Shown one piece after another: positions 6,295 to 54,942 of a DNA stretch of 64,000 bases. Made by a program: the position numbers and the translations under genes. The first letter of the stretch is position 1, and the number at the start of each line of letters is the position of its first letter. Origin of the DNA: Patescibacteria group bacterium (GTDB taxonomy: Bacteria > Patescibacteriota > Patescibacteriia > UBA9934); assembly GCA_041660165.1 (NCBI GenBank), contig JBAZWW010000001.1, positions 105,035-169,034 of the forward strand, written 5' to 3'. The notes under the pieces were generated by a model. The model searched no databases. It was not told the origin of the DNA and saw nothing but the letters and a program-made list of their open reading frames with translations.

Positions 6295-6425
6295 GTGTCA
6301 TCCCGACGTAAGGAGGGATCTGAATTGGCAATCTGGATAATGCATCGACCAATCAGATCTCTCGGCCGTCGGACGGCCTCGAGATGACAACAACGCTCAG
6401 GCTGACGCTGAGACTCGGGACGACA
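6295..6425. repeat. Dispersed nested-palindrome repeat, copy A (MITE/REP-like)
   Basis: GTCATCCCGACG...GGGATCTGAATTGG..CCAATCAGATCTCTCGGCCGTCGGACGGCCTCGAGATGAC, directly after the eno stop. Confidence 0.6.
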
Positions 6426-6441
6426 GCGAATAATACATAAG

Positions 6442-6474
6442 ACACTTATTATATAAGAGACTTATATAATTTCT
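6442..6474. promoter_or_regulatory. Conserved AT-rich palindrome block (TTATATAAG-aga-CTTATATAA) upstream of the helicase gene
   Basis: The arms are a perfect 9-bp inverted repeat. A near-identical 33-bp block occurs at 26683-26716. Confidence 0.4.
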
Positions 6475-6494
6475 GCTTGGGACGCGAATTTTCT

Positions 6495-8171
6495 ATGACC
6501 CAAAATGAAGCCCTTAACATCCTCAAAACCGGCGCGAATGTGTTCCTGACGGGGGAGCCAGGGGCGGGCAAGAGCCACACTGTGCGCGAGTACGTGCACT
6601 ATTTGCGCTCGCATGGCGTAGAGCCGGCCATTACGGCAAGTACCGGCATCGCCGCCACGCACATTGGCGGGCTCACCATTCATTCCTGGAGCGGGATTGG
6701 CATCAAGAAGGCGCTGACGAAGCACGAGATTCGAGAAATCGGAACTAACGATCGTGTAGCGAGCCGGATGCGGAAGACGCATGTGCTGATTATTGACGAG
6801 GTGTCCATGCTCGACGCCAACACGCTCGGCCTGGTTGACGCGGTGTTGCGAGGAGTGAAAGAGAATCACGCGGCCTTTGGTGGGATGCAGGTTATCTTTG
6901 TGGGCGACTTTTTCCAGCTTCCGCCAGTGTCCAGGCACGGCGAGGAGCCGAGCGAATTCTCTTTTACTGCAGACGCGTGGCACTCGGCCAAGCCGGTGGT
7001 TTGCTATTTGAGCGAGCAACACCGTCAAGAGGATCCCGAATTTCTCGAGGTCCTGTCCTCGATGCGTACCGGCAGTGTCCCCGCCGAGCACAAAGCTCGT
7101 CTGCTCGCTCGCCAACAAACGGGTGTTTCAGAATCCGATATCACGAAACTGTTCCCGCACAACGCCGACGTGGATAGGATCAACGCGAATGAGCTCTCGA
7201 AAATCCCGGGGGAGGCCAAATCTTTTAAGATGAATGACAACGGGAATCCAAAAATGTGCGAGGCTTTGCGCCGGGGCTGTCTCTCGCCCGAGAGGCTCGA
7301 CTTGAAGAAAGGCGCGCGAGTCATGTTTACTCGAAACAATTTCGAGGAGGGTTTTGTGAACGGCACAACGGGGGATGTAGAAGGCTTCTCGCCAGATACA
7401 GGATTCCCCGTAGTAATAACTCGATCCGGTCGCCGAATCGAAGTAGAACCGGCGCGCTGGGCGATTGAGGCGGATTCAAGAACGCTTGCGTCAATTTCGC
7501 AGATTCCTTTACGGCTGGCGTGGGCCATGACCGTGCATAAGAGCCAAGGCATGAGTCTCGACGCGGCCTTCGTTGATTTGTCCGGCGCGTTTGCGTACGG
7601 GCAGGGGTATGTGGCGCTGTCGAGAGTTCGTACGCTCGCCGGTCTGTTCCTTGGCGGTCTCAATGAGCGCGCGCTCGAGGTTGATCAAACGGTGCTTGCC
7701 GAAGACGGCGAGTTTAGAGCGCGCTCGGAAAATGCTCGAACAACCTACGGCGAACTTGATTCCGCAAAACTTGAACAGAAGCACAAAGGATTTTTGGTAG
7801 CCTGCGGGGGGAGAGTAACGGCGCGGACACCTATCGAGATGCTCGCGGCCCCGCTCACTCGCACACCAAGGAGCAAAGAACCACGATACGAACAAACGCT
7901 CGCGTTATTACTCGAAGGAAAAAGCGTGAGCGAGGTTGCCACCGAGCGGAGCCGAAAAGACGGGACAATTATCGAACACCTCGAAAAGTTAAAAGAACTC
8001 GGCAAACTGCCAAAGGAAAAATTGGAACACCTGCAGAGCAAAAAAATGTTCGCAGACATTCACTCCGCGTTCAAGGCCAAGAAGACTCAACAGCTGAGCC
8101 CGATCTTTGCGCACCTAAAGGGCAAGTACTCGTACGATGACATCAGGCTCGCGCGCATTTTCTACCCGTAG
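6495..8171 (+). CDS. PIF1/RecD-like ATP-dependent DNA helicase (AAA_30 family) with C-terminal HTH-like region
   Basis: LTGEPGAGKSH Walker A, LIIDEVSM Walker B and the FFQLPPV motif identify it. The ORF track begins at a TTG (6477), so the ATG at 6495 is preferred. Confidence 0.75.
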   Translation: MTQNEALNILKTGANVFLTGEPGAGKSHTVREYVHYLRSHGVEPAITASTGIAATHIGGLTIHSWSGIGIKKALTKHEIREIGTNDRVASRMRKTHVLIIDEVSMLDANTLGLVDAVLRGVKENHAAFGGMQVIFVGDFFQLPPVSRHGEEPSEFSFTADAWHSAKPVVCYLSEQHRQEDPEFLEVLSSMRTGSVPAEHKARLLARQQTGVSESDITKLFPHNADVDRINANELSKIPGEAKSFKMNDNGNPKMCEALRRGCLSPERLDLKKGARVMFTRNNFEEGFVNGTTGDVEGFSPDTGFPVVITRSGRRIEVEPARWAIEADSRTLASISQIPLRLAWAMTVHKSQGMSLDAAFVDLSGAFAYGQGYVALSRVRTLAGLFLGGLNERALEVDQTVLAEDGEFRARSENARTTYGELDSAKLEQKHKGFLVACGGRVTARTPIEMLAAPLTRTPRSKEPRYEQTLALLLEGKSVSEVATERSRKDGTIIEHLEKLKELGKLPKEKLEHLQSKKMFADIHSAFKAKKTQQLSPIFAHLKGKYSYDDIRLARIFYP

Positions 8172-8190
8172 ATTTGGTATACTCTGGCAT

Positions 8191-10431: not shown

Positions 10432-10490
10432 TGGACCCTCCCTGGCGTGTTGAGAAGCGATTACACGCGAACAAAATACGCCTCCCACGT

Positions 10491-10550
10491 AAAGCGTCAA
10501 GTACAAAACACCCCGCCTGCGCGCGATCCTCGGTCGAGGTGTTTCGCGGT
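10491..10550 (+). repeat. Island repeat, copy 1b
   Basis: GTACAAAACACCCCGCC...GGTGTTTCGCGGTAGCGGGGTG. Confidence 0.5.
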
Positions 10551-10583
10551 AGCGGGGTGCAGGTGATGGTTGTGGGATGGCGG

Positions 10584-10958
10584 CTACATCCCGAGACAGG
10601 CCTTTTCGATGACTCCATTTTTGACGATGAAGTCGGTTCCCGAGTTCGGATCGATGTAGACGATTCCAGCGTCCCTCGGCCAATCTGCATGAAGAGTGGC
10701 GTAGGTTACGGCGACGAGCACAAGATCGGTTCGAAGAGTAGCTAGCGGTTCGTCCGTCTTGATTGCTTCTACGACGCCGTATGCATGATCCGTTCCTTTG
10801 CGGGTGATACGCACGACTCGATGCAGATCGTATTCAACTATGACACCGCCCGCTGACCAGACGATGCTTTTGAGGAGTGGAACAGGCAGGTGGCGATGGC
10901 TACGACCACATGCATCAAGGTAGTAGTGGATACATTCTTGAACGAGTGTAAATTCCAT
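10584..10958 (-). CDS. Hypothetical protein, 124 aa, GC-rich
   Basis: Reasonable amino-acid composition. GGAG lies 5 nt upstream of the MEFTLVQE start, and a TATACT -10-like box is further upstream. Confidence 0.4.
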   Translation of the reverse strand: MEFTLVQECIHYYLDACGRSHRHLPVPLLKSIVWSAGGVIVEYDLHRVVRITRKGTDHAYGVVEAIKTDEPLATLRTDLVLVAVTYATLHADWPRDAGIVYIDPNSGTDFIVKNGVIEKACLGM

Positions 10959-11110
10959 GGGGTCTCCATATCGAACCATTCAGTATAGCAAAAAAATACG
11001 AATTTGTCAATAATTCCGCTAACATTAGATAGAAAAACTACCAAGAGCTCCTCAGCGAACGCTAGTCAAAGACCATTGAAAAACAAGTGCCGGTCTTTCA
11101 ATACGCATAA

Positions 11111-11182
11111 TGTACATTTTGTTCAAATTGAAACACCCCGCTCGTCAGCTGGCCCGGAGGGGTGTTTCGCTGTGGCGGGGCG
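11111..11182 (+). repeat. Island repeat, copy 2
   Basis: TGTACATTTTGTTCAAATTGAAACACCCCGC-loop-GGGGTGTTTCGCTGTGGCGGGGCG. Confidence 0.6.
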
Positions 11183-11207
11183 TACGTGGCAGATGCCAGT
11201 AGTCGAG

Positions 11208-11549
11208 CTACGCGCTCGTGGGCGCAGGGGCCTTGATGGCCAGGAGCTCTTCGACCGTTTTTTCGATGATCTGGTCGAGCAGTCCGCCGGGCGCGGTGAT
11301 CTGCTCCAGGGTGACCGGCTTCATTCGCTTGAGGTCGTCGTAGACGTCCTCCATGAGGTCGAGAGTTGCGCCGACCTTGAGCGGGATGTCGTTCACGGCG
11401 AGCACATTGATCGTTTCGATCTCGCGGACGATGCCCTGCATGGGCGTCTCGCCGTTCGCCGACACCTCGGCGCAGAAGCGCGTGATGCAGGAGCGGATGA
11501 AGGCCGTGATCATGGCAACTTCTTCGGGGATGAGACCTGACGGTGGCAT
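11208..11549 (-). CDS. Hypothetical protein B, 113 aa, paralogous to the adjacent gene
   Basis: A GGAG Shine-Dalgarno precedes the start. Its C-terminus ...LLDQIIEKTVEELLAIKAPAPTSA resembles ...VLDQLRSEITAIKIPEPANV of the upstream gene. Confidence 0.55.
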   Translation of the reverse strand: MPPSGLIPEEVAMITAFIRSCITRFCAEVSANGETPMQGIVREIETINVLAVNDIPLKVGATLDLMEDVYDDLKRMKPVTLEQITAPGGLLDQIIEKTVEELLAIKAPAPTSA

Positions 11550-11622
11550 GAAAACTCCAATAGGCGGATTGCCTGCCTATAAAGTAAGCATTTTTTTGCA
11601 CCCAGTCAACGGTAGACCCTGG

Positions 11623-11955
11623 CTAGACGTTGGCCGGCTCAGGAATCTTGATAGCCGTGATTTCCGACCGGAGCTGGTCGAGCACGGTGTTGATTGCGTC
11701 CCTGAACTCTTCGATCGTTTTCGGGGCCAGGACCGCCAGCTCCACGTAGCACTGCCGGTGGAACCCAAGGTAGCGTTCTTGGAGGGTGGTGGGCTTGTCG
11801 TCGAGTATCTGGTCAATCATCCGGATGACGGTCCAGATCTTGTCGACGGGTTGGCTCTTTTCCTTATCGATCGTTTGTCCCAGCCGAATCGCCGACGAAG
11901 CGAACGTGTCGAAGTGCCCGTCCAATTCCTTCAAAGTGACGTCAATCGGTTGCAT
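11623..11955 (-). CDS. Hypothetical protein A, 110 aa, paralogous to the downstream gene
   Basis: A strong GGAGG Shine-Dalgarno lies 4 nt upstream. The protein is non-repetitive and of balanced composition. Confidence 0.6.
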   Translation of the reverse strand: MQPIDVTLKELDGHFDTFASSAIRLGQTIDKEKSQPVDKIWTVIRMIDQILDDKPTTLQERYLGFHRQCYVELAVLAPKTIEEFRDAINTVLDQLRSEITAIKIPEPANV

Positions 11956-12039
11956 GAGACCTCCGTGAGCATGGCTCCTGGAAAGGGTAGGCGTTTGCTT
12001 CTACCGCGTCAACGGTGTTTGGTTATTGATTAAATATAT

Positions 12040-12095
12040 TACATAAGATGCTTATGTATTTTTTGAATGGGTAATTTGTACAAATTGTACAAATT
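12040..12095. promoter_or_regulatory. Promoter/operator region of higBA with two palindromes
   Basis: TACATAAG-atg-CTTATGTA (12040-12058) and AATTTGTACAAATTGTACAAATT (12073-12095) lie 55-110 bp upstream of higB. Confidence 0.4.
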
Positions 12096-12125
12096 GAAAC
12101 ACCCCGTCGATAGCAGCCATCATTC
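12073..12125 (+). repeat. Island repeat, copy 3 (left half only)
   Basis: AATTTGTACAAATTGTACAAATTGAAACACCCCGTCG... has no matching right arm. Confidence 0.4.
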
Positions 12126-12168
12126 GGCCATTGACACATAGTAACGCGTGGCGTTATCATTGGAACGT

Positions 12169-12453
12169 ATGATTCAATCGTTCGCCGATGCAGATACGAA
12201 GCATATTTTCCAACGGGATCTCATTAAGAGGTTTCCAACGTGGCTGCAGAAGATTGCGTTAAGAAAACTTCTGCATATTCACGCCGCTCACCGGCTTGAT
12301 GATCTGAAAGTCCCGCCGGGTAATCGTCTTGAGAAACTCAAAGGCAAGGACGGAGACAAGCACAGCATCCGAGTAAACGATCAATGGCGGTTGCGCTTCA
12401 AATGGAAAGATAGCGACGCCTATGAAGTTTGTTTAATCGATTACCACGACTAA
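12169..12453 (+). CDS. higB: HigB toxin (RelE/ParE superfamily)
   Basis: MIQSF....PPGNRLEKLKGKDGDKHSIRVNDQWRLRFKWKDSDAYEVCLIDYHD matches the HigB killer-protein consensus. The ORF-track GTG start at 12148 is trimmed to the ATG. Confidence 0.8.
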   Translation: MIQSFADADTKHIFQRDLIKRFPTWLQKIALRKLLHIHAAHRLDDLKVPPGNRLEKLKGKDGDKHSIRVNDQWRLRFKWKDSDAYEVCLIDYHD

Positions 12454-12454
12454 T

Positions 12455-12751
12455 ATGAAAAAACAAAAACCCATTCATCCTGGCGAAATCCTCCTTGAAG
12501 ATTTTCTTCTGGCGATGGAGATCACTCAGTATCGTTTGGCAAAGGATATTAGCGTGCCTGCTCGCCGAATCAACGAAATCGTTCACGGCAACCGCGCCAT
12601 TAGCCCGGACACCGCGCTTCGACTGGCAAAGTATTTTGGCACCAGTCCCGAATTCTGGATGAATCTCCAGGCTCATTATGATCTTGAGCTACTCAATGAG
12701 AGTTGGTCGAAAACCATCGAGAAACAGGTGCGAGTATTTCAACCGGCGTAA
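12455..12751 (+). CDS. higA: HigA antitoxin (XRE-type HTH)
   Basis: IHPGEILLEDFL...ITQYRLAKDISVPARRINEIVHGNRAISPDTALRLAKYFGTSPEFWMNLQ is the canonical HigA sequence. The gene begins 2 nt after the higB stop. Confidence 0.85.
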   Translation: MKKQKPIHPGEILLEDFLLAMEITQYRLAKDISVPARRINEIVHGNRAISPDTALRLAKYFGTSPEFWMNLQAHYDLELLNESWSKTIEKQVRVFQPA

Positions 12752-12767
12752 AGTACAATTTGTACAA

Positions 12768-12822
12768 AATGAAACACCCCGCCGTTAGCGACCCATGGGG
12801 GTGTTTCGCTGTGGCGGGGTGA
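12768..12822 (+). repeat. Island boundary repeat, copy 4
   Basis: ATGAAACACCCCGCCGTTAGCGACCCATGGGGGTGTTTCGCTGTGGCGGGGTG, preceded by AATTTGTACAAAA. Confidence 0.6.
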
Positions 12823-12854
12823 CGAAGGAGATACGTTTCGCGGACGTTGGAGCG

Positions 12855-16437: not shown

Positions 16438-16455
16438 CGGTGTTGCTGTTCTGAT

Positions 16456-16616
16456 TCCTATCCCGTCCCGACCCTGAGTTCGACGAAGGGGAGGGATAGA
16501 ATTGGATGCCATTGGGAATCCTCGTCATCCTTGCTACCCCTCCTGTCGTCGGGGTGGGAACCACCGCAACGGCCAATCGGATCCTTCATCGCTGAAAGCT
16601 CCTCAGGATGACTGAA
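16456..16616. repeat. Dispersed nested-palindrome repeat, copy P (long form)
   Basis: It contains ...GGGAGGGATAGAATTGG...CCCCTCCTGTCGTCGGGGTGGGAACC and ends ...GCTGAAAGCTCCTCAGGATGAC. Confidence 0.55.
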
Positions 16617-16643
16617 TCGTTCAGGACGACAAAGACAAAACAA

Positions 16644-20517: not shown

Positions 20518-20607
20518 TCCCATCCTGAGTGCAACTGTCATCTCGAGCAAAGCGAGAGATCCGCATTGGCCGGCCAATCAGATCCCTCCTCACGTCGGGA
20601 TGACATT
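20518..20607. repeat. Dispersed nested-palindrome repeat, copy B
   Basis: TCCCATCCTGAG...GAGATCCGCATTGGCCGGCCAATCAGATCCCTCCTCACGTCGGGATGAC. It fills the gap between convergent pepA and the peroxiredoxin gene. Confidence 0.6.
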
Positions 20608-23078: not shown

Positions 23079-23084
23079 CGCCGA

Positions 23085-23185
23085 GTCATCCTGAGGAGCT
23101 TTCAGCGACGAAGGAGCTGATTGGTCGCTCAGATTGGACCGACGTATTCGACCCTGACGTAAGGAAGGGTCTAGAGGTGGCGGAT
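23085..23185. repeat. Dispersed repeat copy C, ending in the short hairpin unit GACCCTGACGTAAGGAAGGGTCTAGAGGTGGCGG
   Basis: It starts with the GTCATCCTGAGGAGCTTTCAGCGA terminal inverted repeat shared with copy P. Confidence 0.55.
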
Positions 23186-23198: not shown

Positions 23199-23561
23199 AT
23201 GAAATATCGCGGGCTACTACTTAAAGAGGGGCTAACCGACGAGACGATTCTCAATGATCTTGTTATTACAAAAACCGATTATTGGGATGTAAAAAATTCC
23301 TCGGCAGATCAGCCCAAGCAATGGACCGCTGTTTCATTTGAAGTCGAAGGAGATCGAGCTGACGTCATTGCGGAAAACCTAAGCAATGTTCTGAAGCCAA
23401 CGGGCTGGTACCTAAACATGAATAGCAATGATACGGTTATGGTTGTATTTCCGGGGAAGGTTTTTAAATATCTTAAGGGGGATAGCGCAAAACGTGCTGA
23501 AGCTATAGAATTCGGAAGGAGCATCGAGATTCCGGATAGTCAGCTCGATTGGGAGGAATAA
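23199..23561 (+). CDS. Hypothetical 120-aa protein flanked by 34-bp inverted repeats
   Basis: Clean ORF of ordinary composition. No family recognised. Confidence 0.5.
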   Translation: MKYRGLLLKEGLTDETILNDLVITKTDYWDVKNSSADQPKQWTAVSFEVEGDRADVIAENLSNVLKPTGWYLNMNSNDTVMVVFPGKVFKYLKGDSAKRAEAIEFGRSIEIPDSQLDWEE

Positions 23562-23562: not shown

Positions 23563-23598
23563 CACCGCCTCTAGACCCTTCCTCACGTCAGGGTCTGG
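23563..23598. repeat. Inverted copy of the short hairpin unit (CCACCGCCTCTAGACCCTTCCTCACGTCAGGGTC)
   Basis: It is the reverse complement of 23149-23182, with 2-3 mismatches. Confidence 0.55.
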
Positions 23599-23627
23599 CC
23601 CAGCGCACGGGAACCGCCGAAAAATAT

Positions 23628-25067: not shown

Positions 25068-25170
25068 CGCACTGTCATCCCGAGCAGAGCGAGGGATCTG
25101 AATTGGCCGGCCAATGCAGATCTCTCGGCCGTCGGACGGCCTCGAGATGACAATTACGCTCAGGATGACA
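25058..25170. repeat. Dispersed nested-palindrome repeat, copy D
   Basis: GTCATCCTGACGCACTGTCATCCCGAGCAGAGCGAGGGATCTGAATTGGCCGGCCAATGCAGATCTCTCGGCCGTCGGACGGCCTCGAGATGACAATTACGCTCAGGATGAC. It shows outer and inner inverted-repeat pairs. Confidence 0.65.
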
Positions 25171-25179
25171 ATACCGCCT

Positions 25180-25659
25180 ATGAACTCGATAATTGTTGAC
25201 ATCATCTTCTTAGTCCTCGCCCTTCTTCTTGCCCTCCAGGGCTGGAAACAGGGTTTTGTTAGGATGGGCGGAAGTTTGATCGCACTCGTCATCAGTGTTG
25301 TGCTCGCTACATGGGGTGTGGCGTGGATCGAGTCGGTGACTGGCTGGCGTATTAGCGCGAATCCTGTGGTGTTTGTACTCGTGTTCCTGCTCGTGACGCT
25401 TATTTTGACCAAGCTGATGGGTTTAGCAATTACGCTCCTCGACCTTGTCAGAAAAATAGTTTCTATCATCCCCGGCATCGGCATTCTGAACAGCATTCTC
25501 GGCTTTATCGTCGGCGCGCTTGAGGCTGGCATGATTGCTCTGGCCATTGCGTACGCAACCGTGAATTTCTTTCCGGCGAGTCAGGTCAGAACAGCTCTCG
25601 TGCAATCTAGAACGATTTCTACCGCGGTTGATGTGCTCGTGAGGATGAATGTGCTTTAG
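25180..25659 (+). CDS. cvpA: CvpA family membrane protein
   Basis: Four TM helices; MNSIIVDIIFLVLALLLALQGWKQGFV is a typical CvpA N-terminus. Confidence 0.7.
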   Translation: MNSIIVDIIFLVLALLLALQGWKQGFVRMGGSLIALVISVVLATWGVAWIESVTGWRISANPVVFVLVFLLVTLILTKLMGLAITLLDLVRKIVSIIPGIGILNSILGFIVGALEAGMIALAIAYATVNFFPASQVRTALVQSRTISTAVDVLVRMNVL

Positions 25660-26670: not shown

Positions 26671-26682
26671 AAGAATATATAA

Positions 26683-26716: not shown

Positions 26717-26744
26717 GCTCTCCTATTGTTTCCTCCCCAAAATC

Positions 26745-32574: not shown

Positions 32575-32595
32575 CCAAACACCATCCATCACTAA

Positions 32596-33966
<1,371 letters not shown>

Positions 33967-34950: not shown

Positions 34951-37900
34951 ATGCCTGCAAACCCGCTTCTTGAAGATTTGAACCCTGAACAGCTGATGGC
35001 CGTGACCCACGGGGAAGGCCCGCTTATGATTATTGCTGGCGCGGGGACGGGAAAAACTACTGTGGTAACTAAGCGTATCGCGTGGTTGATCGAGCAGAAA
35101 TTGGCCGAGCCGAATGAGATCCTGGCGCTGACGTTTACGGATAAGGCGGCCAACGAAATGGAGGAACGCGTTGATCGATTATTACCGATGGGCTATCTCG
35201 ATCTTAGTATTTCGACATTCCATTCGTTCTGCGAGAAAGTTCTGCGCGAGCATGGAATTCACATTGGCATCCCCTCGGACTTTAAGCTGTATACCGAGGT
35301 TGATTGCTGGCTTTTGATGCGCCGAAATATTGATAGGTTCGAGCTCGACTATTTTAAGCCGAGGGGATCACCGACCAAGTTCCTTAGACAATTGCTTCAG
35401 CATTTTTCTCGCGCCAAGGATGAGGGAATCACGCCGGAGAAGTATCTGCTCGCCGTCGAGGAACTCGAATCAGTCATCCTGAGCGATGTTGTCATCTCGA
35501 GCGGAGCGAGAGATCTGATTGGCCAATCAAATCCCTCCTCACGTCGGGATGACAATGCGGTGAGCGACGAAGATCGGCTCGAACTTCAAAAGTGGCAGGA
35601 ACTTTCAAGTGCGTACGCCATGTATGAAACGTTGCTGTCTGAAAAGCACGCCATTGATTTTGGCGGGTTATTATTGCTGACGCTCGAGTTATTCAAAACT
35701 CGGCCGAACGTACTCGAGGAGTATAAGAAGCGGTTTAAATATATTATCGTCGACGAATTCCAGGACACGAATAGCATTCAGAATGAGCTCGTCAAAATCC
35801 TTGTTCACGAGCCGAGGAACATTACTGTCGTGGGCGACGACGACCAGGCCATTTATAAGTTTCGAGGCGCCGCTCTGGCAAACATTCTTGAGTTCAGAAC
35901 AGATTTTCCTGATGCATCTCGCGTGGTGCTGACTCGCAATTACCGAAGTGGAGCAACGATCCTCGACGCCGCTCACAAACTCATCCAGACAAACAACCCG
36001 CACCGGCTCGAAGCGAGCGAGGGACTCTCGAAAAAGCTTCAATCACAAACTGAGTCTGAGGGACTTGTCCGCCATTTGCACTGCGCCACTGCCGTTGAGG
36101 AGGTTGAGCAAGTTATTAAAGAAATCATCACGAAGCACGAGAGCGGGGAAGCGGAGTGGAGCGACTTTGCGATTCTGGCCAGATCGAATGACGCCGTTGA
36201 TCCGTTCCTTGAGGCCCTTGAACGCGCCGGCGTCCCGTATCATTTCGTGGCGCTCTCGGGTTTGTACACGAAGCCGATTATTCTTGATGCCATGGCGTAC
36301 ATGCGCGCGGTCTGCGAACCGTACCACTCGCCGGCGATGTATCGAATTTTGAGCCACCCCAGGCTCGGTCTCACTGAGGGTGACTTGTCCGAGCTGATGC
36401 GCTACGTTCGCCGAAAGTCTGGCGGAGCGATTATTGACGGCATGCGTTCACTCACTCAAGCGATTGGCATGTCGCTCGACGGACGCAATCGAGCCATGCA
36501 GATTACGACTATTATTGAGCAGTTGCGTGAGAAGGCCAAACGCCTACCAGTCACCGAGCTCTTCGTCTCGGTTCTCAAAGACACCGGTTTGCTTGGCGAC
36601 TTGAAAGTTCTCGCCGAACGAGACCAGCAGGAAAACTTCCGTCATCTCGAGGGCTTCCTGGCGCGTCTTAAGCGTTATGTAATCGCGAGTCCGGACAACA
36701 AGCTCCTCCCTGGTTTTCTCGAAGAGTTTGATGCCGAACGCGAGGCAGGGGAGGCTGGCGGATTACGGCCAGACGCCGAGGAAGGGCCGGACGTGGTGAA
36801 CGTCATGACGATTCACGCCGCTAAGGGGCTTGAGTTCAAATATGTGTTTGTCGTTAACATGATCGAGCAGAGATTTCCCTCGGTCTCACGCTCCGACCAA
36901 CTACCACTCCCGCCTGCGCTTGTTCGTAAGGTTGACGCTGCACTGGACGATCATGTAGCTGAGGAACGCCGGTTATTTTATGTGGCCATGACGCGAGCGA
37001 AAGAAGGTTTGTATCTTTGCTCGGCCGAGGATTACGGAGGTACCCGAAAACGCAAGCCGTCGAGATTCCTGGCCGAGCTCGGTTATCAAGCTCCGGTAGT
37101 CGAAAAGAAAAAAACGATCACGACCGATGATCTCCTCGATGAGCGCGCCGGCGGTAGGGACGAGGATCGAGCCATCCCCTCGTTGGCGCTCCCCACGAAA
37201 TTCTCCTTTTCGCAAATCGCCGCCTTTGGCAATTGTCCTCTGCAATACAAATACGCGCACATTCTCAAGATTCCCACCTTTGGCCGGCACCAGTTTAGCT
37301 TTGGCCAGAGCATGCACTTGACCCTTGAAAAGTTTGTAAAACGACTACTCGAGGCCGAGGGCAACACGCAAGTTTCATTGTTCGGTGCACCGCCGACTGC
37401 TCCCGTGCTACCGAGCGAACGAGAACTCCTCGAAATGTATTCAGCTTCATTTATTGACGAGTGGTACCCGGATTCAGCTACTCGTGAAAAGTATCGAGAA
37501 GAGGGCGTGAAGGCACTCAAGGAGTTTCACCGAAAAGTGGCCGAGAACACACCCAAACCACTCCTTCTCGAAGCTGGCTTCACTTTGAAGATCGGCGATA
37601 TCTTGATGAAGGGTCGGATCGACAGAATTGACTCGGTTGACGGCGGTGTCGAGATCATTGACTACAAGACTGGTCGAGCGAAAGAAAAACTCGAATGGGA
37701 CGACCGCCGACAGTTGTTGCTGTACGCGCTCGCCGGCGAGCAATGTTTTAATCCTCCACTCATCGTGAAAGCACTGACATATTATTACGTAGAGACAAAC
37801 CAGACCATGAGTTTTGCGCCAACAGAAAAGGACAAAGAAAAACTACTCGATGAGATTCAAGAGACAGTTGGTGGTATTCGAACGAGCTCGTTCGAGGCCA

Positions 37901-37965: not shown

Positions 37966-37976
37966 GGGCGCGTGTT

Positions 37977-38088
37977 TTTCCATCCCGAGCAGAGCGAGGG
38001 ATAGAATTGGCTAGTGAAATTTGTCACGATCCTCGTCCAACGGCATCCATGCTACCCCTCCTGTCGTCGGGGTGGGAATCATCCCAAT
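37977..38088. repeat. Dispersed repeat, copy L
   Basis: TTCCATCCCGAGCAGAGCGAGGGATAGAATTGG...CCCCTCCTGTCGTCGGGGTGGGAATC, directly after the uvrD stop. Confidence 0.6.
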
Positions 38089-47534: not shown

Positions 47535-47538
47535 TTTG

Positions 47539-47625
47539 GTTCCCACCCCGAGGCGACGAGGGGTAGGATTCTAGCCGAGATTCTCGAATAAAATACTATC
47601 CCTCCTATCGTCGGGATGGGAGATC
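47539..47625. repeat. Dispersed repeat copy M (CCCACCCCGAGG variant)
   Basis: TTCCCACCCCGAGGCGACGAGGGGTAGGATT...CTATCCCTCCTATCGTCGGGATGGGAGATCC. Confidence 0.6.
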
Positions 47626-47641: not shown

Positions 47642-48904
47642 ATGATTGACATCAAACTGTTCCGAGAAAATCCAAACTTCTATCGTGACGCATCGCGCGC
47701 CAAAAATATTGAGATAGACATCCAGCGCATCATGGAGCTTGATCGGCGCGTACGATTATTGAAAACGGAACTCGAGGGTATTAGTGCGCAGAAGAATGAG
47801 GTCTCCAAGCGTATTCCGAAGGCGACGGCTGAAGAACGTAAAGAGATGATTGGCGAGATGCGGACGATTGATCAAAAAGCGGAAACGCTTCAGGCCGAGC
47901 TTGGCCCGATTGACAATGAGCTTGAGGATTTGCTTTACCATATCCCAAACCCCGCGCTCGCTGACGTAAAACTCGGCAAGAATGACACGGAGAATGAGGT
48001 CCTGCGCGAGGTTGGCAAACCAACGGAGTTTTCGTTTGCACCAAAGGATCATCTGGCGCTTGGCGAGGCGCTCGGAATTATTGACGTTGAGCAAGCCTCA
48101 AAGGTCAGCGCGTCGCGTTTCAACTATTTGATTGGCAACGGTGCGGGATTGGCCTACGCCATTCAGCAGTACGCCATGTGTACGGTCATGAAGCACGGTT
48201 TCACGCCGGTGGTTGTTCCGCACCTTGTCAACGCTCGCACCATGCGCGCCATGGGCTATCTTGAACACGGCGGACATGATGAGATTTACTATTTCCCCAA
48301 AGACAATTTGTATCTGATCGGTACGGCGGAACAACCGCTCGGTGGTCTGCACGTTGATCAGATTCTGGCCGAAAAAGTCTTGCCATTACGCTACGTGGCG
48401 TTTTCTAATGCTTTCAGACGCGAGGCCGGTAGTTATGGCAAGGATACGAAGGGCCTCATCCGCATGCACGAGTTCCAAAAGATCGAAATGTTCAGCTACA
48501 CCATCCCTGAAAACTCGAACGCTGAGCATGAGTTGCTGTTGTCAATTGAGGAGGAACTCGTTCGGGGCCTTGGTGTTCCTTATCGAGTAATCAAACAGTG
48601 TACAGGCGACCTCGGTCTCCCAGCGGCACGCAAGTACGACATTGAGTGCTGGATGCCAACACAGAATACCTACCGCGAGACTCACTCGACGAGTACGTGC
48701 ACGGACTTCCAGTCCAGACGTTTGAATACTCGCTATAAGAATGGGGAAGGGGAGACCAAACTCGTCCATACGCTGAACGGCACAGCCTTTGCCATAGGCC
48801 GTATCCTCGCGGTCATTCTCGAGAATTTCCAGAACGAGGATGGCTCGATCACTATCCCGGGGGTGTTACGGCCGTACATGGGCGGGATGGAACGGATCGG
48901 GTAG
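47642..48904 (+). CDS. serS: Seryl-tRNA synthetase
   Basis: N-terminal coiled coil; class II motifs FRREAGS and GLGVPYRVI. Confidence 0.95.
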   Translation: MIDIKLFRENPNFYRDASRAKNIEIDIQRIMELDRRVRLLKTELEGISAQKNEVSKRIPKATAEERKEMIGEMRTIDQKAETLQAELGPIDNELEDLLYHIPNPALADVKLGKNDTENEVLREVGKPTEFSFAPKDHLALGEALGIIDVEQASKVSASRFNYLIGNGAGLAYAIQQYAMCTVMKHGFTPVVVPHLVNARTMRAMGYLEHGGHDEIYYFPKDNLYLIGTAEQPLGGLHVDQILAEKVLPLRYVAFSNAFRREAGSYGKDTKGLIRMHEFQKIEMFSYTIPENSNAEHELLLSIEEELVRGLGVPYRVIKQCTGDLGLPAARKYDIECWMPTQNTYRETHSTSTCTDFQSRRLNTRYKNGEGETKLVHTLNGTAFAIGRILAVILENFQNEDGSITIPGVLRPYMGGMERIG

Positions 48905-48905
48905 T

Positions 48906-50051
48906 ATGCACGCCAAAACCTGGGTTGAGATTTCTGCTCCGGCTCTGCGGAGCAATATTCGTGAGCTGATGGCTACGCTCAGCCCAGGCGTTTCTTTTTG
49001 CGCCATCGTCAAAGCGAATGCCTACGGCCACGGCACAGCGCAAGTGGCCTCAATCGCCGTTCAGGAAGGCGTGAAGCTATTCGGGGTTGACTCAGTTGAC
49101 GAAGCCTTGGTTGTTAGAGCCGTCGCGCCTAAAGCGTCGATTTTTATTATGGGGGCAACCATCCCCGAACGGCTTGAGGACGTTATAAATGTTCGAGCAA
49201 TTCAAGCCATCTATGACGTTGGCAGTCTGAAAGCCATTCGCGAGACGGCTCGATTACTTGGCAAACCGGCGCTCGTGACGATCGAGCTTGAAACCGGTTT
49301 GCACCGGCTCGGCGCGGAAGGGCGAGAACTTTCGGCTATGCTAGACGAGCTCAAATTTTCCTGTGGGCTCGTGTATGTCGTTAGTGTTGCTTCGCATCTT
49401 TCGAGTGCGGAAGACCTGCCGATGGCGGGTTTGACAAGCGGTCAGTATGACCGTTTCTGGAAAGCGGTCAGCGAGATTCAGACAAAGGGCCATCAGCCTG
49501 AACACCTGCATATTGCCTGCTCGGCTGCCGGCATCATGCATGAGCTGAATCACGGCACGCAGATTCGCTACGGCATTGTCATGTACGGCCTGTGGCCATC
49601 GCTTGACGTCCGGCGAGCCGGCACGCTCGGTAAACACCACGCCGACCTGAAACCGGTGCTGTCGTGGAAAACAACGATTGCTCAAGTGAAGGATGTGTCG
49701 GCTGGTGCGGGAATTAGTTATGGACCAACGGTTGTTGTAAATAGGCTGACTCGAGTAGCTGTTTTGCCAGTAGGCTATTACGATGGCTATGATCGAGCGT
49801 TGTCTGGCATTAGTTCGGTTGTCATTCACGGCACAAAGTGCCCTATCCTCGGCCGTGTTTGCATGAACATGTTCATGGTGGATGTCTCGACCGTTCCAGG
49901 AACGCTCTCTGCGAACACGCCAGTTACCTTGCTCGGACGTGACGGCATTCATACAATTACCGCTGAAGACATCGCTGATAAACTCGGCACGATCAATTAC
50001 GAGGTGGTAACGCGCATAAATCCGCTCTTGCCTCGTGTTATCGTTGGGTAG
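48906..50051 (+). CDS. alr: Alanine racemase
   Basis: AIVKANAYGHG PLP-lysine motif. The start is trimmed to MHAKTWVEIS. Confidence 0.9.
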   Translation: MHAKTWVEISAPALRSNIRELMATLSPGVSFCAIVKANAYGHGTAQVASIAVQEGVKLFGVDSVDEALVVRAVAPKASIFIMGATIPERLEDVINVRAIQAIYDVGSLKAIRETARLLGKPALVTIELETGLHRLGAEGRELSAMLDELKFSCGLVYVVSVASHLSSAEDLPMAGLTSGQYDRFWKAVSEIQTKGHQPEHLHIACSAAGIMHELNHGTQIRYGIVMYGLWPSLDVRRAGTLGKHHADLKPVLSWKTTIAQVKDVSAGAGISYGPTVVVNRLTRVAVLPVGYYDGYDRALSGISSVVIHGTKCPILGRVCMNMFMVDVSTVPGTLSANTPVTLLGRDGIHTITAEDIADKLGTINYEVVTRINPLLPRVIVG

Positions 50052-50052
50052 T

Positions 50053-50922
50053 ATGAAGCGCGACTTTTTTAGGGCCTCGATAGCGAAAGCGCATGATGGA
50101 GAAGGGATGGCTAATCCCTTGTTTCCGGTTCATCAAAAACCGCTCTGGAAAAAGATCTTGTATGTGGTATTTGTGACGAGTCTATCATTTGGTGCCTGCG
50201 AGTTTGGCATTTCGTATTTACAACGTCCGCAATTTCAGTTATCGAACGTGACATTAGAGGGCCTGTCGTTGCTTGATGAGGGGGCGGTGCGAGGCGTGAT
50301 TGATAAAGACCTGCATGAAAGAACGATGCTCTTCTTCACGCAAGGGCATCAAGCATTTTTTAACGCTGATGATCTCAAGGCCGTGCTAACAGAAAATTTC
50401 TCTATTCGCGGAGTTTCAGTCGCCCGAAACGGAGCAGATCTTCATGTGGCCATCGTTGAAGATATCGTTATGGTCCTGGTGCATTCCAGCGAGCATTGGC
50501 TTTTAACAGGACTCGATGGAAAGATCTTGCGGGAACTTTCAGCAGAGGAAATTAAGAATGCTAGCGCCTCTGAAGTTACCCCGCCATTTGATAGAGTGCC
50601 CTTGATCGTTCTTGACGAACAAATTGATTCCGCACTCGCTGAACCCGTCATCTCGCCCGCCAGGCTTGCGGGCTTGGTGAAACTCGACCATAATCTGCGG
50701 GCCAGAACGCTGACTCCCATCAGCTATTCCCTCAATACTCGCAAAACGAGCTGGCTAAAGGTAAAAGTAAAAGAAAAACCCTACGGCATTCTGGTGGATC
50801 TTGATCAGGACATTGAACAAGAAACCGCCATGTTAGACGCCGCCGCTGCCTCATACGCCAACGCCGATGGGGGACTGCAATACATTGATCTTAGATTTGG
50901 AAATCACGTTTACGTAAAATAA
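50053..50922 (+). CDS. FtsQ/DivIB-like cell-division protein (TM + POTRA)
   Basis: Single TM segment, then a POTRA-like beta-alpha block. Weak family call. Confidence 0.5.
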   Translation: MKRDFFRASIAKAHDGEGMANPLFPVHQKPLWKKILYVVFVTSLSFGACEFGISYLQRPQFQLSNVTLEGLSLLDEGAVRGVIDKDLHERTMLFFTQGHQAFFNADDLKAVLTENFSIRGVSVARNGADLHVAIVEDIVMVLVHSSEHWLLTGLDGKILRELSAEEIKNASASEVTPPFDRVPLIVLDEQIDSALAEPVISPARLAGLVKLDHNLRARTLTPISYSLNTRKTSWLKVKVKEKPYGILVDLDQDIEQETAMLDAAAASYANADGGLQYIDLRFGNHVYVK

Positions 50923-50923
50923 T

Positions 50924-51910
50924 ATGAAAATTCTTGTCACGGGAGGCGCGGGCTTTATTGGCTCGAACCTTGTTCGCCGATTGCTTGATGCCAAGCACGA
51001 TGTTACAATTTACGACTGTTTTTCTACCGGCGTTGAGGCGAACATTGAAGGACTGCCCGTGGAAATTATCCGTGACACAATTAGTAATTTCGACAAGCAC
51101 GATTCGTCCGCCTTTGAGGTAATTTTCCACCTTGGTATGCCAAGTACCATGATGCTCTATAGAAACGACTCGGTTGATACCATGTATGAGGCGGTCATTG
51201 GCATGCAGAGGATACTCGAGGCCTGCAGAGTACATGGCTCAAAGCTCATTTTTGCCAGTTCGTCGAGCGTCTATAACGGCCTTGAACTCCCGCACACGGA
51301 AGATCGAGAGATACTGATCAAAGACTTCTACACGGAGGCGCGAGTAGCTATGGAGCGCATGGCCAAATTATATACGGATCTCTACGGCCTGAATTCAATC
51401 GGCTTCCGTTTCTTTGCGGTCTACGGCCCGCACGAGGAGGCTAAGAAAGGCTACGCGAATATGGTCAGTCAGTTTATGTGGTCAATCATGAAGGGTGATG
51501 CTCCGCGAGTATTTGGCGACGGTACGCAGACCCGTGATTTTACCTACGTTGATGACGTGACGAGGATTCTCGCGGAAGCCATGGACAGGACGTTTGACCG
51601 CACGGAGATTTTCAACATTGGCACGGCGCACAACTATACTTTTAACGACATCATTCGAGTAATAAACGAAGAACTCGGCACGAACGTTCAGCCGGTCTAC
51701 GTCCCGAATCCGATCCGCAATTACGTTTCAACTTTGCTCGCTGACATCACGAAGCTAAAACAGCACTTCGGTGCACCAGAGATTGAACTTCGCGAGGGCG
51801 TAAGACGGCTCGTGAACTACTACAAAACAGAATCAGCCCCTCCAGATATGCAAAAGATGGAAGACTACTACGTCTCAAAGGTGGCCACCCGCGGACCTGA
51901 CGAGAAATAA
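50924..51910 (+). CDS. NAD-dependent sugar epimerase/dehydratase (SDR extended)
   Basis: VTGGAGFIGSNL Rossmann motif and a YxxxK catalytic pair. Confidence 0.85.
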   Translation: MKILVTGGAGFIGSNLVRRLLDAKHDVTIYDCFSTGVEANIEGLPVEIIRDTISNFDKHDSSAFEVIFHLGMPSTMMLYRNDSVDTMYEAVIGMQRILEACRVHGSKLIFASSSSVYNGLELPHTEDREILIKDFYTEARVAMERMAKLYTDLYGLNSIGFRFFAVYGPHEEAKKGYANMVSQFMWSIMKGDAPRVFGDGTQTRDFTYVDDVTRILAEAMDRTFDRTEIFNIGTAHNYTFNDIIRVINEELGTNVQPVYVPNPIRNYVSTLLADITKLKQHFGAPEIELREGVRRLVNYYKTESAPPDMQKMEDYYVSKVATRGPDEK

Positions 51911-51913
51911 TTT

Positions 51914-52339
51914 ATGGCCATTAGAAAACCACCGCGAGGAGTTGCTGCGTCCGTTGCTGTTTATTCGGCGAGTACAGGTTCATTTTTGATGATTCAGAGA
52001 AAGTGGGACCCAGATAAGGGCAAATGGGCCTTTCCTGGCGGGTATATGGAGGTTGATCAGGAAACCCTTGAGCAGGCCGGGGTCCGAGAATTAAAAGAAG
52101 AAACGGGTGTTGAGATTGCCGAAGCTCAGCTGAAGCTGATGCACGTACTGTCGGACCCTAAAAGAGACCCGCGGGGCCACGTAGTTGACGTGGGCTACTT
52201 TGTTCGCTTTGAAAAAGAGGCGCCCGGAATTGGCAGTGATGAAACGCGTACAAAATGGATCACGGTAGATGTGGCAAAACGGCTTGATTTCGCCCTGGGG
52301 CACCGTCAAATGTTTGATGAGGCCATGAAACTTATCTAG
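51914..52339 (+). CDS. NUDIX hydrolase
   Basis: GGYMEVDQETLEQAGVRELKEETGV Nudix box. Confidence 0.8.
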   Translation: MAIRKPPRGVAASVAVYSASTGSFLMIQRKWDPDKGKWAFPGGYMEVDQETLEQAGVRELKEETGVEIAEAQLKLMHVLSDPKRDPRGHVVDVGYFVRFEKEAPGIGSDETRTKWITVDVAKRLDFALGHRQMFDEAMKLI

Positions 52340-53265
52340 AGCTTCACGATCTGTTCGGCAAGCTGCACGTTCTCAATTTTGCTGTCGTGGTCAACGATAC
52401 ATGTGTCAATTTTCGAGTTCTCGATTCGTGCTCCCGCCAAAATGATCGAATCCTTAATGGTCGAATTTTTGATCTCGCAAGTTTCGTCAACATGATTCAC
52501 ACCCGCGAACGTATTGCCGAGTGCGGGGTCAAGGAACCTTGGCGGAACGGCGATCGAGGCCCCGGCATGAATGTGGGCGTCCACATACGCCCTGAAAGAG
52601 CCGATGTCATTCCAGTAGCCCGTGAAGGTATAGACATGAGACTCAACTCCTTGTTCGAGGAAATTCTCGAACACTGCCCCGATACGATCAGGCAAGCGGA
52701 CAGCGAGTTCCGAAATCATCGGCAAGTAGCGCTGAGGCACGTAATAGAAACAGGCGCCAACGAGTGTGGAGAGGGGATGCTCCGGCTTCTCTTGAAAGCT
52801 TTTTACGACGCTACCTTCCGCGATAACTACCCCGTACTTTTTTGCATCTTCAACATTTTGAATATCATAAGCAGCTAGCGCCGGCTGATTCTGAGTAAAG
52901 GCCATGAAGTCCTCTATCTTGAAGCTGAAGAAATTGTCCCCGCCGATAATTAGCAGGTCCTCGTCAATCTTAAACTGGTCTATGGCGAGTCCTACCGCGC
53001 CAAGGGAACCCTTCTTCGTAGCTTCTGACGTAGACGGTTCTACGAGCACAGTGATGTCCCTGTCTGCGTGCAGTTTTCGCCACTCGTGAAAATCGTTCTC
53101 AAACGCGGTATTGGTGCTCACAATGATGGGGAAGTGGGCGGGGACGTTCTCCACGATATGCGAAATGACCGCCTTGCCAGCCAGCGGTAAAAGCGTCTTC
53201 GCTTTATCTGCGGTTAATGGTTGCAAGCGTTTAGCAAAACCTCCGGCGAGGATCAATACTTTCAT
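52336..53265 (-). CDS. Sugar-1-phosphate nucleotidyltransferase with C-terminal left-handed beta-helix
   Basis: MKVLILAGGFAKRLQPLT G-x-G-x-R motif, and hexapeptide repeats at the C-terminus. Confidence 0.8.
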   Translation of the reverse strand: MKVLILAGGFAKRLQPLTADKAKTLLPLAGKAVISHIVENVPAHFPIIVSTNTAFENDFHEWRKLHADRDITVLVEPSTSEATKKGSLGAVGLAIDQFKIDEDLLIIGGDNFFSFKIEDFMAFTQNQPALAAYDIQNVEDAKKYGVVIAEGSVVKSFQEKPEHPLSTLVGACFYYVPQRYLPMISELAVRLPDRIGAVFENFLEQGVESHVYTFTGYWNDIGSFRAYVDAHIHAGASIAVPPRFLDPALGNTFAGVNHVDETCEIKNSTIKDSIILAGARIENSKIDTCIVDHDSKIENVQLAEQIVKL

Positions 53266-53469
53266 AAGATGATTCTTTTTATCACAAAATGGGAGACGGT
53301 TCAATATGGGTCAGATTCTAGACAGGGGAGTAGGGAGACCCATATGCTAGTTTAAAACGCGGGTATCCAGATAGCCTTCACACGAATATAGTGGCGTCGC
53401 ACAATATATCTTCTACGACCCTTGGGGCGTTAATTACCATGAATCGCTAATACCTCAATAACCTTAGCA

Positions 53470-53545
53470 TCCCTCCTGAATCATACTTGTTCGCCCAATC
53501 AGATCTCTTCCCTTCGACAAGCTCAGGGTCGAGATGACAACGTGG
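53470..53545. repeat. Degenerate dispersed-repeat copy N
   Basis: CGCCCAATCAGATCTCTTCCCTTCGACAAGCTCAGGGTCGAGATGACAA resembles the inner half of copies A and D. Confidence 0.4.
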
Positions 53546-53673
53546 ACCGTCAGATCCAGCCTCGATCACAACCGTCTTTAAACTCGCCAAAACCCCGACG
53601 CGTTTAAATGCCCTGGGTTGATTTGGGGGTATCCTAGTACCCCTAATTTAAAGTGCGAAAACCAGCGGTCCTT

Positions 53674-54903
53674 TTAGCGTGGCAAGAACGGCATAGGGTC
53701 TACAGGAATACCACCTTTACGCACTTCAAAGTGCAGGTGCGGACCCGTTGAGAGTCCCGCACCCTTGCTTCCTGGGCGTCCACCAGATAGTCCAATGATG
53801 TCGCCACGGCTGACTACCTGGTCTTGCACGACCATGAATTTTGAAAGATGCGCGTATAACGTAGCCAAACCGTTTTCATGAATAATCATGATGTAGTTGC
53901 CGTATTGACTGCCGGTACGGGTCCAGGCCACAACGCCTGGCGCAGCGGCCTCAACGGGACTGCCCTGAGGCGTAGCGATATCGAGTCCAGGGTGTTCGAA
54001 CAAGTATCGAAACGGATAGGTAGGGTCGTGAAATAATGTAGTAATGATCCCGCGGAGAGGCCAGGTTATAGCACTCGGATTCGGATCATCGCTCTGTGCC
54101 AATGCCTCATCCGCTTTATTTTGAAGCTCATTGATTCTGGTAGTGATCGCTTGCTGTTCTTGGCGTAATTCATTGATGAGCTGGCGGTACCCCGCCTCTG
54201 TGTCCTCCGTCTCCGCAGCCAGAACTTCCTTTGCTCCCTTCTGATTTTCAAGGACGAGCGCCTGCTTCTTCAGCTTCTGTTCAAGGGTCTGGAGGTCCTC
54301 TAATTTAGAGCTGGCTGTACTCATATCCTCCTGAAGTCCTTCCCGCGTGACGTGCGTAGCGGACAGTGTCTTGCGCAGGTCTCCGTTCACGGATTCAAGA
54401 TCCGCCACAGCTTTAAATACCTGATCAAATGTCTTTGCGCCAAGCATGAGCTCAAGCGCTCCTCCTTCTGCGTCCTGCTTGTGGAGTGAAAAGATGAGAT
54501 TGCCAAGCAATTGCTTTTGTCTCTCCAGCTTCTTATCAGCCTCGCTAATCTTACCGTTGATTTGTTGGAGCTCAAGATTTGAGGTATCAATCTCCGCCTG
54601 CGTGCTTGCCACGTCAAGCTCTGCCATGGCCGTTTGGTTTTCAAGAAGTGCTATGTCATTCATGAGCGATGCTGACTTCTTTCCGTACTCCGCAATTTTC
54701 TTTTTATACTCGCCCAGCTGATTGTTAATGGTCTCAATCTGCGCTTTGCGGTTTTGAATTTCTTGAGCAATCGCCGTAGGATCCGTTGGCATTTCAGCGA
54801 GCGCGAACAACTGCGCGGGCGCAATGCTCACAGCTAGAAGCGCTAGAACAGTTTGTCGAACAATCCTCCGAATGTTCATAGTGGCGTTCATACTGATGGC
54901 CAA
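53674..54903 (-). CDS. M23 peptidase with N-terminal coiled coil (EnvC/NlpD-like)
   Basis: HPGLDIA...GNYIMIIHENGLATLYAHL...GPHLHFEV LytM motifs. Confidence 0.85.
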   Translation of the reverse strand: MAISMNATMNIRRIVRQTVLALLAVSIAPAQLFALAEMPTDPTAIAQEIQNRKAQIETINNQLGEYKKKIAEYGKKSASLMNDIALLENQTAMAELDVASTQAEIDTSNLELQQINGKISEADKKLERQKQLLGNLIFSLHKQDAEGGALELMLGAKTFDQVFKAVADLESVNGDLRKTLSATHVTREGLQEDMSTASSKLEDLQTLEQKLKKQALVLENQKGAKEVLAAETEDTEAGYRQLINELRQEQQAITTRINELQNKADEALAQSDDPNPSAITWPLRGIITTLFHDPTYPFRYLFEHPGLDIATPQGSPVEAAAPGVVAWTRTGSQYGNYIMIIHENGLATLYAHLSKFMVVQDQVVSRGDIIGLSGGRPGSKGAGLSTGPHLHFEVRKGGIPVDPMPFLPR

Positions 54904-54942
54904 TTCAGATCCCTCGCTCTGCTCGGGATGACAAACGCGTCC
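54899..54942. repeat. Half copy of the dispersed repeat (inverted), copy O
   Basis: CCAATTCAGATCCCTCGCTCTGCTCGGGATGAC is the reverse complement of the left half of copy D. Confidence 0.5.

Follow-up and report, generated by a model that had tools for sequence, protein, structure and literature searches.

A 64-kb stretch of one Patescibacteria genome (contig JBAZWW010000001.1; hereafter the window, to which all results refer unless stated otherwise) carries an abundant family of dispersed hairpin repeats, the GA-type hairpin-unit family that we call family A. We consider it likely that its members are repetitive extragenic palindromic (REP) class units, mostly in dimers resembling REPINs (REP doublets forming hairpins), which have been gained and lost in permissive places in a Candidatus Uhrbacteria-like lineage. 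By its AtpA sequence, the window is assigned to Candidatus Uhrbacteria-like Patescibacteria, and a protein match at 100% identity and an identical stretch of 20 kb link it to a Patescibacteria metagenome-assembled genome. With a covariance model trained on 25 copies of the basic unit, 29 family A units were found in the 64 kb at E ≤ 8e-4, clearly separated from the background, with the next match at E = 0.09. This corresponds to 0.45 units per kb, or ~2.4% of the window. A preliminary reading of the sequence (the original prediction) had described a family of nested palindromes at a density unusual for a small genome, and both the family and its density were confirmed: the model recovers the sites listed there, and the copy at 3055 proved to be a member with a 26-nt insertion. 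Simple motif counts agree, as CTCGGGATGGGA with at most one mismatch has nine matches against 0.40 expected by chance and CGTCGGGGTGGGA has seven against 0.03, and a repeat search of the window returned several overlapping direct and inverted families at the coordinates of those palindromes.

The repeated entity is a hairpin unit of ~30 nt (~30–39 nt), not a palindrome of ~95 nt. Each unit starts with an unpaired 4-nt 5′ tag, TGTC or TCCC. Among the 25 units of the training set, 11 carry TGTC (or AGTC), 12 carry TCCC (or TTCC) and two carry another tag; TTCG and CCAG are rare. The inverted arms of the original prediction were recovered, but the TCCCA terminus that it assigned to all copies is not universal, since there are two tag classes. 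The tag is followed by a 5-bp stem with the variants ATCCC/GGGAT, ATCTC/GAGAT, ACCCC/GGGGT, ATCCT/AGGAT and ACCCT/AGGGT, in which the first pair is A-T in 25/25 units and the second is T-A in 16 and C-G in nine. Above the stem, GA on both strands face each other to form a tandem G.A/A.G mismatch. It is kept across the window except in the nested unit at 53491, whose second GA now reads AA, and it is also kept in units of Candidate Phyla Radiation (CPR) genomes whose AtpA is 63–80% identical to that of the window. At the apex, one or two pairs close a short loop of the GNRA, GNA-like or tri-nucleotide type, mostly 3–4 nt (for example GTAA, GTGA, GAGA, GCGA, AGA or AAA); in some copies the loop is replaced by an extra inserted hairpin or by another whole unit. 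The 3′ tails read CTGA, CCGA, AGCA or AGAA. Eleven head-to-head dimers of ~75–105 nt (typically ~95) account for 22 of the 29 units, the + unit preceding the − unit in each, and 9/11 are heterodimers by stem sequence. Several dimers have additional 5′ half-units (GTCATCCTGAG...) outside, oriented like the adjacent unit, which gives the elements their nested-palindrome look. Rfam had no match in the window at gathering thresholds and none on the elements at E ≤ 5 in 16–39 kb, and a tRNA or tmRNA search of the window returned none.

In an alignment of the 25 units (A1), all 150 pair cells are standard and four of the six pairs covary, while sliding the 3′ partner by one to three columns as a control brings pairing to at most 45–55%. 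Since the A1 units came from a scanner that demands pairing and are an ascertained set, two unbiased tests were added. In one, a pattern with one stem pair left free (Y...R) was scanned over IMG/VR; in 98 pattern matches, among the matches listed, the free pair is T-A in 74, C-G in 23, T.G in one and C.A in none. In the other, orthologous units were compared with those of a relative at ~81% nucleotide identity (L082), and T-A to C-G double changes were found at stem position 5 in two of four units; one of them lies in the tatD coding sequence (CDS) and alters the encoded residues. Within the window, the arms of 9/11 dimers have unlike stems, and each difference is compensated within its own unit, which weakens the long palindrome. 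RNA folding favors the long hairpin, with z of −2.0 to −7.8 and 8/10 folds at −4.9 or below. Judged from the sequence comparisons, constraint acts on the local stem-loop of the individual unit (~20–30 nt) and not on the long palindrome, and it is the hairpin shape, not the stem sequence, that these comparisons show to be conserved. The compensatory covariation of the original prediction therefore stands, both in the unbiased sample and in orthologous copies, but it acts within the local hairpin of each arm and not between the two arms. A G.U versus C.A strand-asymmetry test in the long hairpin was dropped because local compensatory changes hit both strands symmetrically.

Fifteen of the 17 elements formed by these units are extragenic. 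Co-directional spacers hold 11 of the dimers or singletons and convergent spacers hold two (3059 and 20518), whereas none of the ~9 divergent spacers in the window is occupied. An element starts 0–25 nt from the upstream stop codon, as the original prediction had stated (its gene names were likewise confirmed by Pfam), more precisely 0–21 nt past it, and ends 10–46 nt before the next start, leaving space for a ribosome-binding site. Elements are about equally near the next start and the previous stop, and so they simply fill the spacer; the bias toward positions 3′ of stop codons is what is expected of any spacer-filling element in a compact co-directional genome. The predicted placement at gene ends thus holds near stop codons, but not for two in-frame copies, one in a UvrD/AddA-like open reading frame (ORF) and the other at 26030 in tatD. 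The former, a dimer at 35472–35570, falls in the UvrD-helicase domain at amino acids (aa) 204–232 of an intact ORF of 1034 aa, and the corresponding region is 9–23 aa shorter in relatives (17 aa in L001, the nearest relative in a species-representative collection, with 85% AtpA identity). The terminator role that had also been suggested is not borne out: no element has a T-tract, in which family A hairpins differ from intrinsic terminators, none of the 27 terminator-like sites in 19–39 kb coincides with an element, and three elements lie within the atp gene cluster. By a reading of the unit list, the single units of the window are all in sense orientation (6/6).

Comparison with relatives points to turnover. 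L001 is syntenic with the window over 22 kb, in which no family A unit was found. With spacers estimated from the flanking gene ends (blastn unaligned blocks, in brackets, give wider values), the metG/cvpA spacer is 1 nt in L001 versus 112 nt in the window (27 versus 138), atpA/atpG is 5 versus 131 nt (30 versus 155), atpG/atpD is 6 versus 135 nt (7 versus 136), and rsmI/metG is 57 versus 549 nt (75 versus 566). An unrelated palindromic family with arms of tandem CAGGTKT heptamers occurs in L001 and L082 at cvpA/tatD, atpE/atpF or metG/cvpA, junctions at which the window has family A. Across 80 loci the atpG/atpD spacer is bimodal, either ~1–50 nt or ~93–145 nt, and the hairpins of the long class belong to at least six families unrelated to one another, GA-type units among them. 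In one locus (L036) the tag of the GA-type units is a true CGTC. Between orthologues, whole apical segments have been exchanged, as in the unit rsmI-a, and no consistent flanking direct repeat (target-site duplication) was found among the 11 dimers. As to the CAGGTKT family itself (CCACCAGGTTTCAGGTGTCAGGT...ACCTGACACCTGAAACCTGGTGG), the window has one copy at 33960–34054 in the atpD/atpC spacer, and the copies in the relatives are at 6585–6700 and 8980–9070 of L001 and at 6725–6860 and 7340–7480 of L082; further heptamer-armed palindromes are found at atpG/atpD in other CPR loci.

Family A belongs to the REP class, an already known kind of element, of which it represents a new family from a new phylum: its units are short, multicopy, imperfect palindromes, mostly extragenic and arranged as inverted doublets. 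The closest described kind is the CGTC-tagged REP superfamily, which includes Neisseria dRS3 and Rickettsia RPE-4 and RPE-6 (Di Nocera, De Gregorio and Rocco, 2013; PMC3733652). These REPs have a CGTC tag with the variants TGTC and CCTC, an uninterrupted stem of 8–9 bp starting with A-T and T-A, a loop of 4–5 nt and a CCA tail. Head-to-head dimers predominate and are often heterodimers, located ≤20 nt from upstream stops in co-directional or convergent spacers, while repair genes, UvrD among them, are enriched for copies inserted in frame; no transposase is linked to these REPs, and they are reported to lack an association with the REP-associated tyrosine transposases (RAYTs) (PMC3733652). Family A has in common with this superfamily short hairpin units with an unpaired 5′ tag (TGTC in part of the units), the A-T first pair, the predominant head-to-head heterodimers, the near-stop spacer placement, the in-frame copies including one in a UvrD/AddA-like gene, and the lack of a linked transposase. 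It differs in that the stem of the window units is broken by the tandem G.A/A.G, the loops are mostly 3–4 nt, the tail is CTGA, CCGA or AGNA rather than CCA, and half of the tags are TCCC. Given the interrupted stem, the other tails and loops and the TCCC tag, family A is not one of the four published CGTC families; that survey spanned eight phyla, Patescibacteria not among them, and discarded repeats with more than one mismatch (PMC3733652).

Other known systems match less closely. Like REPINs mobilized by RAYTs, family A consists of inverted REP doublets of ~100 nt with a 5′ tag beside a hairpin that has a conserved irregularity, shows no target-site duplication and keeps its shape and not its sequence; unlike them, it has no GTAG tag, and neither the window nor the CPR loci examined yielded a RAYT. 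The Rickettsia palindromic elements (RPE) and intragenic REPs resemble it in their in-frame insertion into variable loops of intact essential genes, but the sequence family is unlike that of RPE and only 2/17 family A elements are intragenic. Miniature transposable elements with inverted repeats (MITEs) such as the Neisseria Correia element share its size, inverted termini, intergenic abundance and co-transcription with neighbors; family A differs by lacking a target-site duplication and, within the window, a related insertion sequence (IS), and by having arms that are covarying hairpins. The MITE/REP-like label of the original prediction is therefore kept in its REP half, while the MITE half is not supported, there being neither target-site duplications nor a transposase in the window. 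A literature search combining CPR with REP or MITE found no paper describing such elements in CPR, searches by sequence strings gave primer coincidences only, and the REP papers found, including RepRanger 2025, do not cover CPR.

GA-type units with the same architecture also occur in other CPR metagenome-assembled genomes (MAGs), and the unit extends beyond CPR: at least 120 IMG/VR contigs have an exact match to the degenerate pattern, and these copies share the dimer-plus-half-unit architecture; one contig (L148) has a tandem array of units. Head-to-head dimers are also found in frame in a phage portal-protein ORF (L121, 5332–5436) and inside a gene annotated as an MmeI-type restriction-modification enzyme of a Planktothrix agardhii plasmid (L206, NZ_LR882964.1, 15455–15532), so that intragenic tolerance of the GA-type repeat is widespread. 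Single units of the broad sample are in sense orientation in 16 cases versus 25 antisense (crude ORF calls), which does not reproduce the 6/6 of the window. The commonest apex in the IMG/VR sample, among the matches listed, is GC-GNA-GC. In DNA, d(GCGNAGC) mini-hairpins have unusual stability, as do sheared tandem G.A pairs flanked as Y-GA-R. Together with the near absence of G.T (1/98 of the matches listed) and the lack of a sense bias, these stable motifs make us lean toward recognition as folded DNA over recognition as a strand-specific RNA motif.

If the preferred reading is right, the permissive places would be the spacers after genes and the variable loops of two proteins, and the units would most likely be recognized in folded form, as single-stranded DNA or a cruciform, by an enzyme that acts in trans to copy or move them. 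By analogy, the tag and the GA bubble would match the role that the GTAG tag and hairpin play for RAYT transposases. The mobilizing enzyme would not be encoded in the window. Once transcribed, inserted hairpins might passively impede 3′ exonucleases within operons, and mRNA 3′ stabilization is a possible, putative role.

A cognate RAYT-like transposase, which the original prediction had proposed to look for, was not found: tblastn with seven RAYT/TIRYT sequences (from PMC3733652) had no match in the window or in 85 CPR-derived loci, and Pfam detected no transposase, integrase or Y1_Tnp domain in ~60 window ORFs. Two candidates for the cognate gene were rejected. An HUH fragment in the phage-like contig L121 lies ~1.1 kb from a dimer, is not unit-flanked and was judged coincidental. 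The small gene ORF120 (23199–23561), considered as a REPtron-like cognate gene, encodes no His residues and no HUH motif; its ferredoxin-like structure model has no significant PDB match, and its homologue in L084/L085 is not unit-flanked. Readings of the GA motif as a K-turn/K-loop, a hammerhead or a CsrA/Shine-Dalgarno mimic, based on sequence only, were set aside in view of the symmetric dimers and the absence of an Rfam match.

Several points weigh against gain and loss of mobile REP-class units. No mobilizing enzyme turned up, either as HUH/Y1 in the window and the 85 CPR-derived loci or by Pfam in the ~60 window ORFs, and active movement is deduced solely from presence or absence between species at 80–85% identity. 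Compensatory change at orthologous copies points to constraint in place, through a host-level function or hairpin-templated repair, which a purely selfish element would not require. Details published for the CGTC superfamily do not fit either, the stem being interrupted, the tail not CCA and half of the tags TCCC, and the portion of the genome covered is 64 kb. Alternatively, the hairpins might be punctuation selected by the host, serving as mRNA 3′-end stabilizers or processing sites within operons and kept because the cell requires a stable hairpin at certain gene junctions, with the repeat family as the current supplier of hairpins. Consistent with this, cvpA/tatD, atpE/atpF, atpG/atpD and metG/cvpA are occupied in different genomes by large hairpins of unrelated families, compensatory changes preserve the pairing of orthologous units, elements follow stop codons and never lie in divergent, promoter-containing spacers, the long hairpins are very stable (z −2.0 to −7.8), and Escherichia coli REPs are established stabilizers of upstream mRNA (cited in PMC3733652). 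However, close relatives do without an element at atpA/atpG, atpG/atpD and metG/cvpA, with spacers of 1–30 nt, and copies lie in frame in two window genes, a phage portal gene and a plasmid MmeI gene. The dimers are symmetric, so that the sense strand carries the GA face of only one unit of the two; the broad sample shows no sense bias (16 sense versus 25 antisense, by crude ORF calls); and a G.T wobble in 1/98 of the matches listed would be unusual for a selected RNA helix. We regard host-selected punctuation as unlikely.

The inverted termini, which begin TGT...ACA, and the length of ~95 nt, typical of MITEs, would also suit classical MITEs derived by deletion from an IS with a DDE transposase, in which case the repeated TGTCATCCYGAG 12-mers would be terminal or subterminal transposase-binding sites; the half-units in direct orientation ~17 nt from the terminal unit at several ends look like multiple binding sites. 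We find this origin very unlikely, since there is no consistent flanking direct repeat and no IS or transposase in the window, and since binding to double-stranded DNA needs no covariation between the 5′ and 3′ halves, yet covariation is present. The covariation could in turn arise without selection if pairing were kept mutationally, by template switching at quasi-palindromes or by gene conversion, and it would then be uninformative on function. Many near-identical copies are available as conversion donors, a few stem variants (ATCCC, ATCTC, ACCCC, ATCCT and ACCCT) recur as if whole units were copied, and apical segments are swapped wholesale between orthologues (rsmI-a). But hairpin-templated correction should erase the tandem G.A/A.G, which is retained in nearly all window units and is kept in the CPR genomes with AtpA 63–80% identical while the flanking pairs change; purely mutational maintenance thus appears highly improbable.

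A broader proposal may be added to the preferred reading of REP-class units gained and lost in permissive places. The GA-bubble hairpin might define a distinct, very widespread REP superfamily of uncultured bacteria and phages that is recognized by a non-RAYT protein and kept by the host in CPR as punctuation of operons and protein loops. We consider this doubtful though conceivable. If true, it would give a first handle on the propagation of CGTC-type REPs, which have no known transposase; because the family is common to many environmental phage-like contigs, it could help identify the enzyme or host factor for these transposase-less REPs. CPR/Patescibacteria genomes are ~1 Mb and are usually described as streamlined. 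Despite this streamlining, ~2.4% of the window consists of repeat hairpins that turn over between close relatives and lie in frame in two essential genes, and in the units the covariation of a hairpin about an invariant tandem G.A can be seen with unusual clarity.

The 17 elements are as follows, in order along the window. At 3059–3122, between convergent hydrolase and ABC-transporter genes, is a + variant unit of the TAGACCC subtype (repeat family D10), a partial covariance-model match whose 3′ stem arm is preceded by an inserted extra hairpin of 26 nt. The element at 6294–6430 begins 8 nt past the eno stop codon and is a head-to-head dimer (6294–6331 + and 6345–6391 −) with two extra half-units on the right. 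A composite element follows tspO at 16455–16634, in which a + unit whose apex contains a nested second unit (16459–16509) precedes two − units (16524–16561 and 16569–16615) and a half-unit. The convergent pepA/ahpC spacer is filled exactly by an element at 20518–20607, made of an outer half-unit and a head-to-head dimer (20534–20572 + and 20570–20607 −). Between rsmI and ORF120, two + units occupy 23082–23182 (23082–23128, with a doubled GA module, and 23145–23182), and a − unit at 23563–23600, 1 nt past the ORF120 stop codon, is the inverted partner of the 23145 unit (91% complementary over 34 nt). The nested element after metG (25058–25170) has an outer half-unit pair, GTCATCCTGA...TCAGGATGAC, around a dimer (25071–25109 + and 25108–25154 −), and the stop codon of metG, TGA, falls within the outer half-unit. 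The cvpA/tatD spacer holds a head-to-head homodimer with ACCCC stems in both units (25676–25772). The in-frame unit of the tatD CDS is a single + unit at 26033–26070 that encodes ..LDPDARRGLEVV.. in a variable loop.

In the atp cluster there are head-to-head heterodimers in the atpE/atpF (28878–28956) and atpA/atpG (31475–31568) spacers and a head-to-head dimer in the atpG/atpD spacer (32477–32575). The intragenic element of the UvrD/AddA-like helicase-nuclease ORF (35472–35570) comprises an outer half-unit and a head-to-head dimer (35488–35526 + and 35519–35556 −). Two further head-to-head heterodimers lie at 37976–38079, beginning 10 nt past the stop codon of the UvrD-like gene, and at 47539–47623, between the cytidylyltransferase-like (ribF-like) gene and serS. 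The remaining elements are single − units: the one at 53491–53541 has a second unit nested in its apex, and it is the second GA of the outer unit that has changed to AA; the one at 54897–54935, between gltX and the M23 peptidase gene, is the best-scoring unit of the window (46 bits).

Gene calls are affected at several of these elements. Public annotation has a 43-aa ORF entirely within a repeat element (L081 3260–3391, equal to window 16458–16589) and a tatD start inside another (L081 12507, equal to window 25705), and the longest cvpA ORF (25114–25659) starts within the metG/cvpA element, while the public call starts at 25180. ORFs and starts called inside elements indicate that the repeats mislead start-codon assignment. 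The elements thus confuse gene callers through spurious starts and small internal ORFs, and they are likely break points for MAG assembly.

ORF120 encodes 120 aa, has a G+C content of 43.8% versus 51.7% for the window, and is flanked by inverted family A units. It is absent from L001 and L002 and present at the same place in L082. The protein has 11 homologues among 5.8 billion proteins and no Pfam domain, and the confidence of its AlphaFold model is high (predicted local distance difference test score of 93).

The window also holds other repeats. At 10440–12850 there are three copies of another structured repeat, TGTACAAATTGTACAAA..GAAACACCCCGC..N20..GGGGTGTTTCGCTGTGGCGGGG (families D6, D7 and D14), which adjoin small toxin-antitoxin-type genes encoding a HigB-like toxin and an HTH_3 protein, in a layout that resembles a cassette array; a RelB-like gene lies at 2205–2474. 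A 50-nt A+T-rich direct repeat, GAATAATACATAAGACACTTATTATATAAGAGACTTATATAATTTCTGCT, has two copies of 88% identity, one just upstream of a PIF1-like helicase gene (6428–6477) and the other just after tatD (26670–26719), and may be a shared promoter or operator. Finally, the cumulative GC skew peaks at ~48000–52400 and gene orientation changes from + to − at ~52.3 kb, which suggests the presence of a replication terminus, or of some other strand-switch point, within the window.

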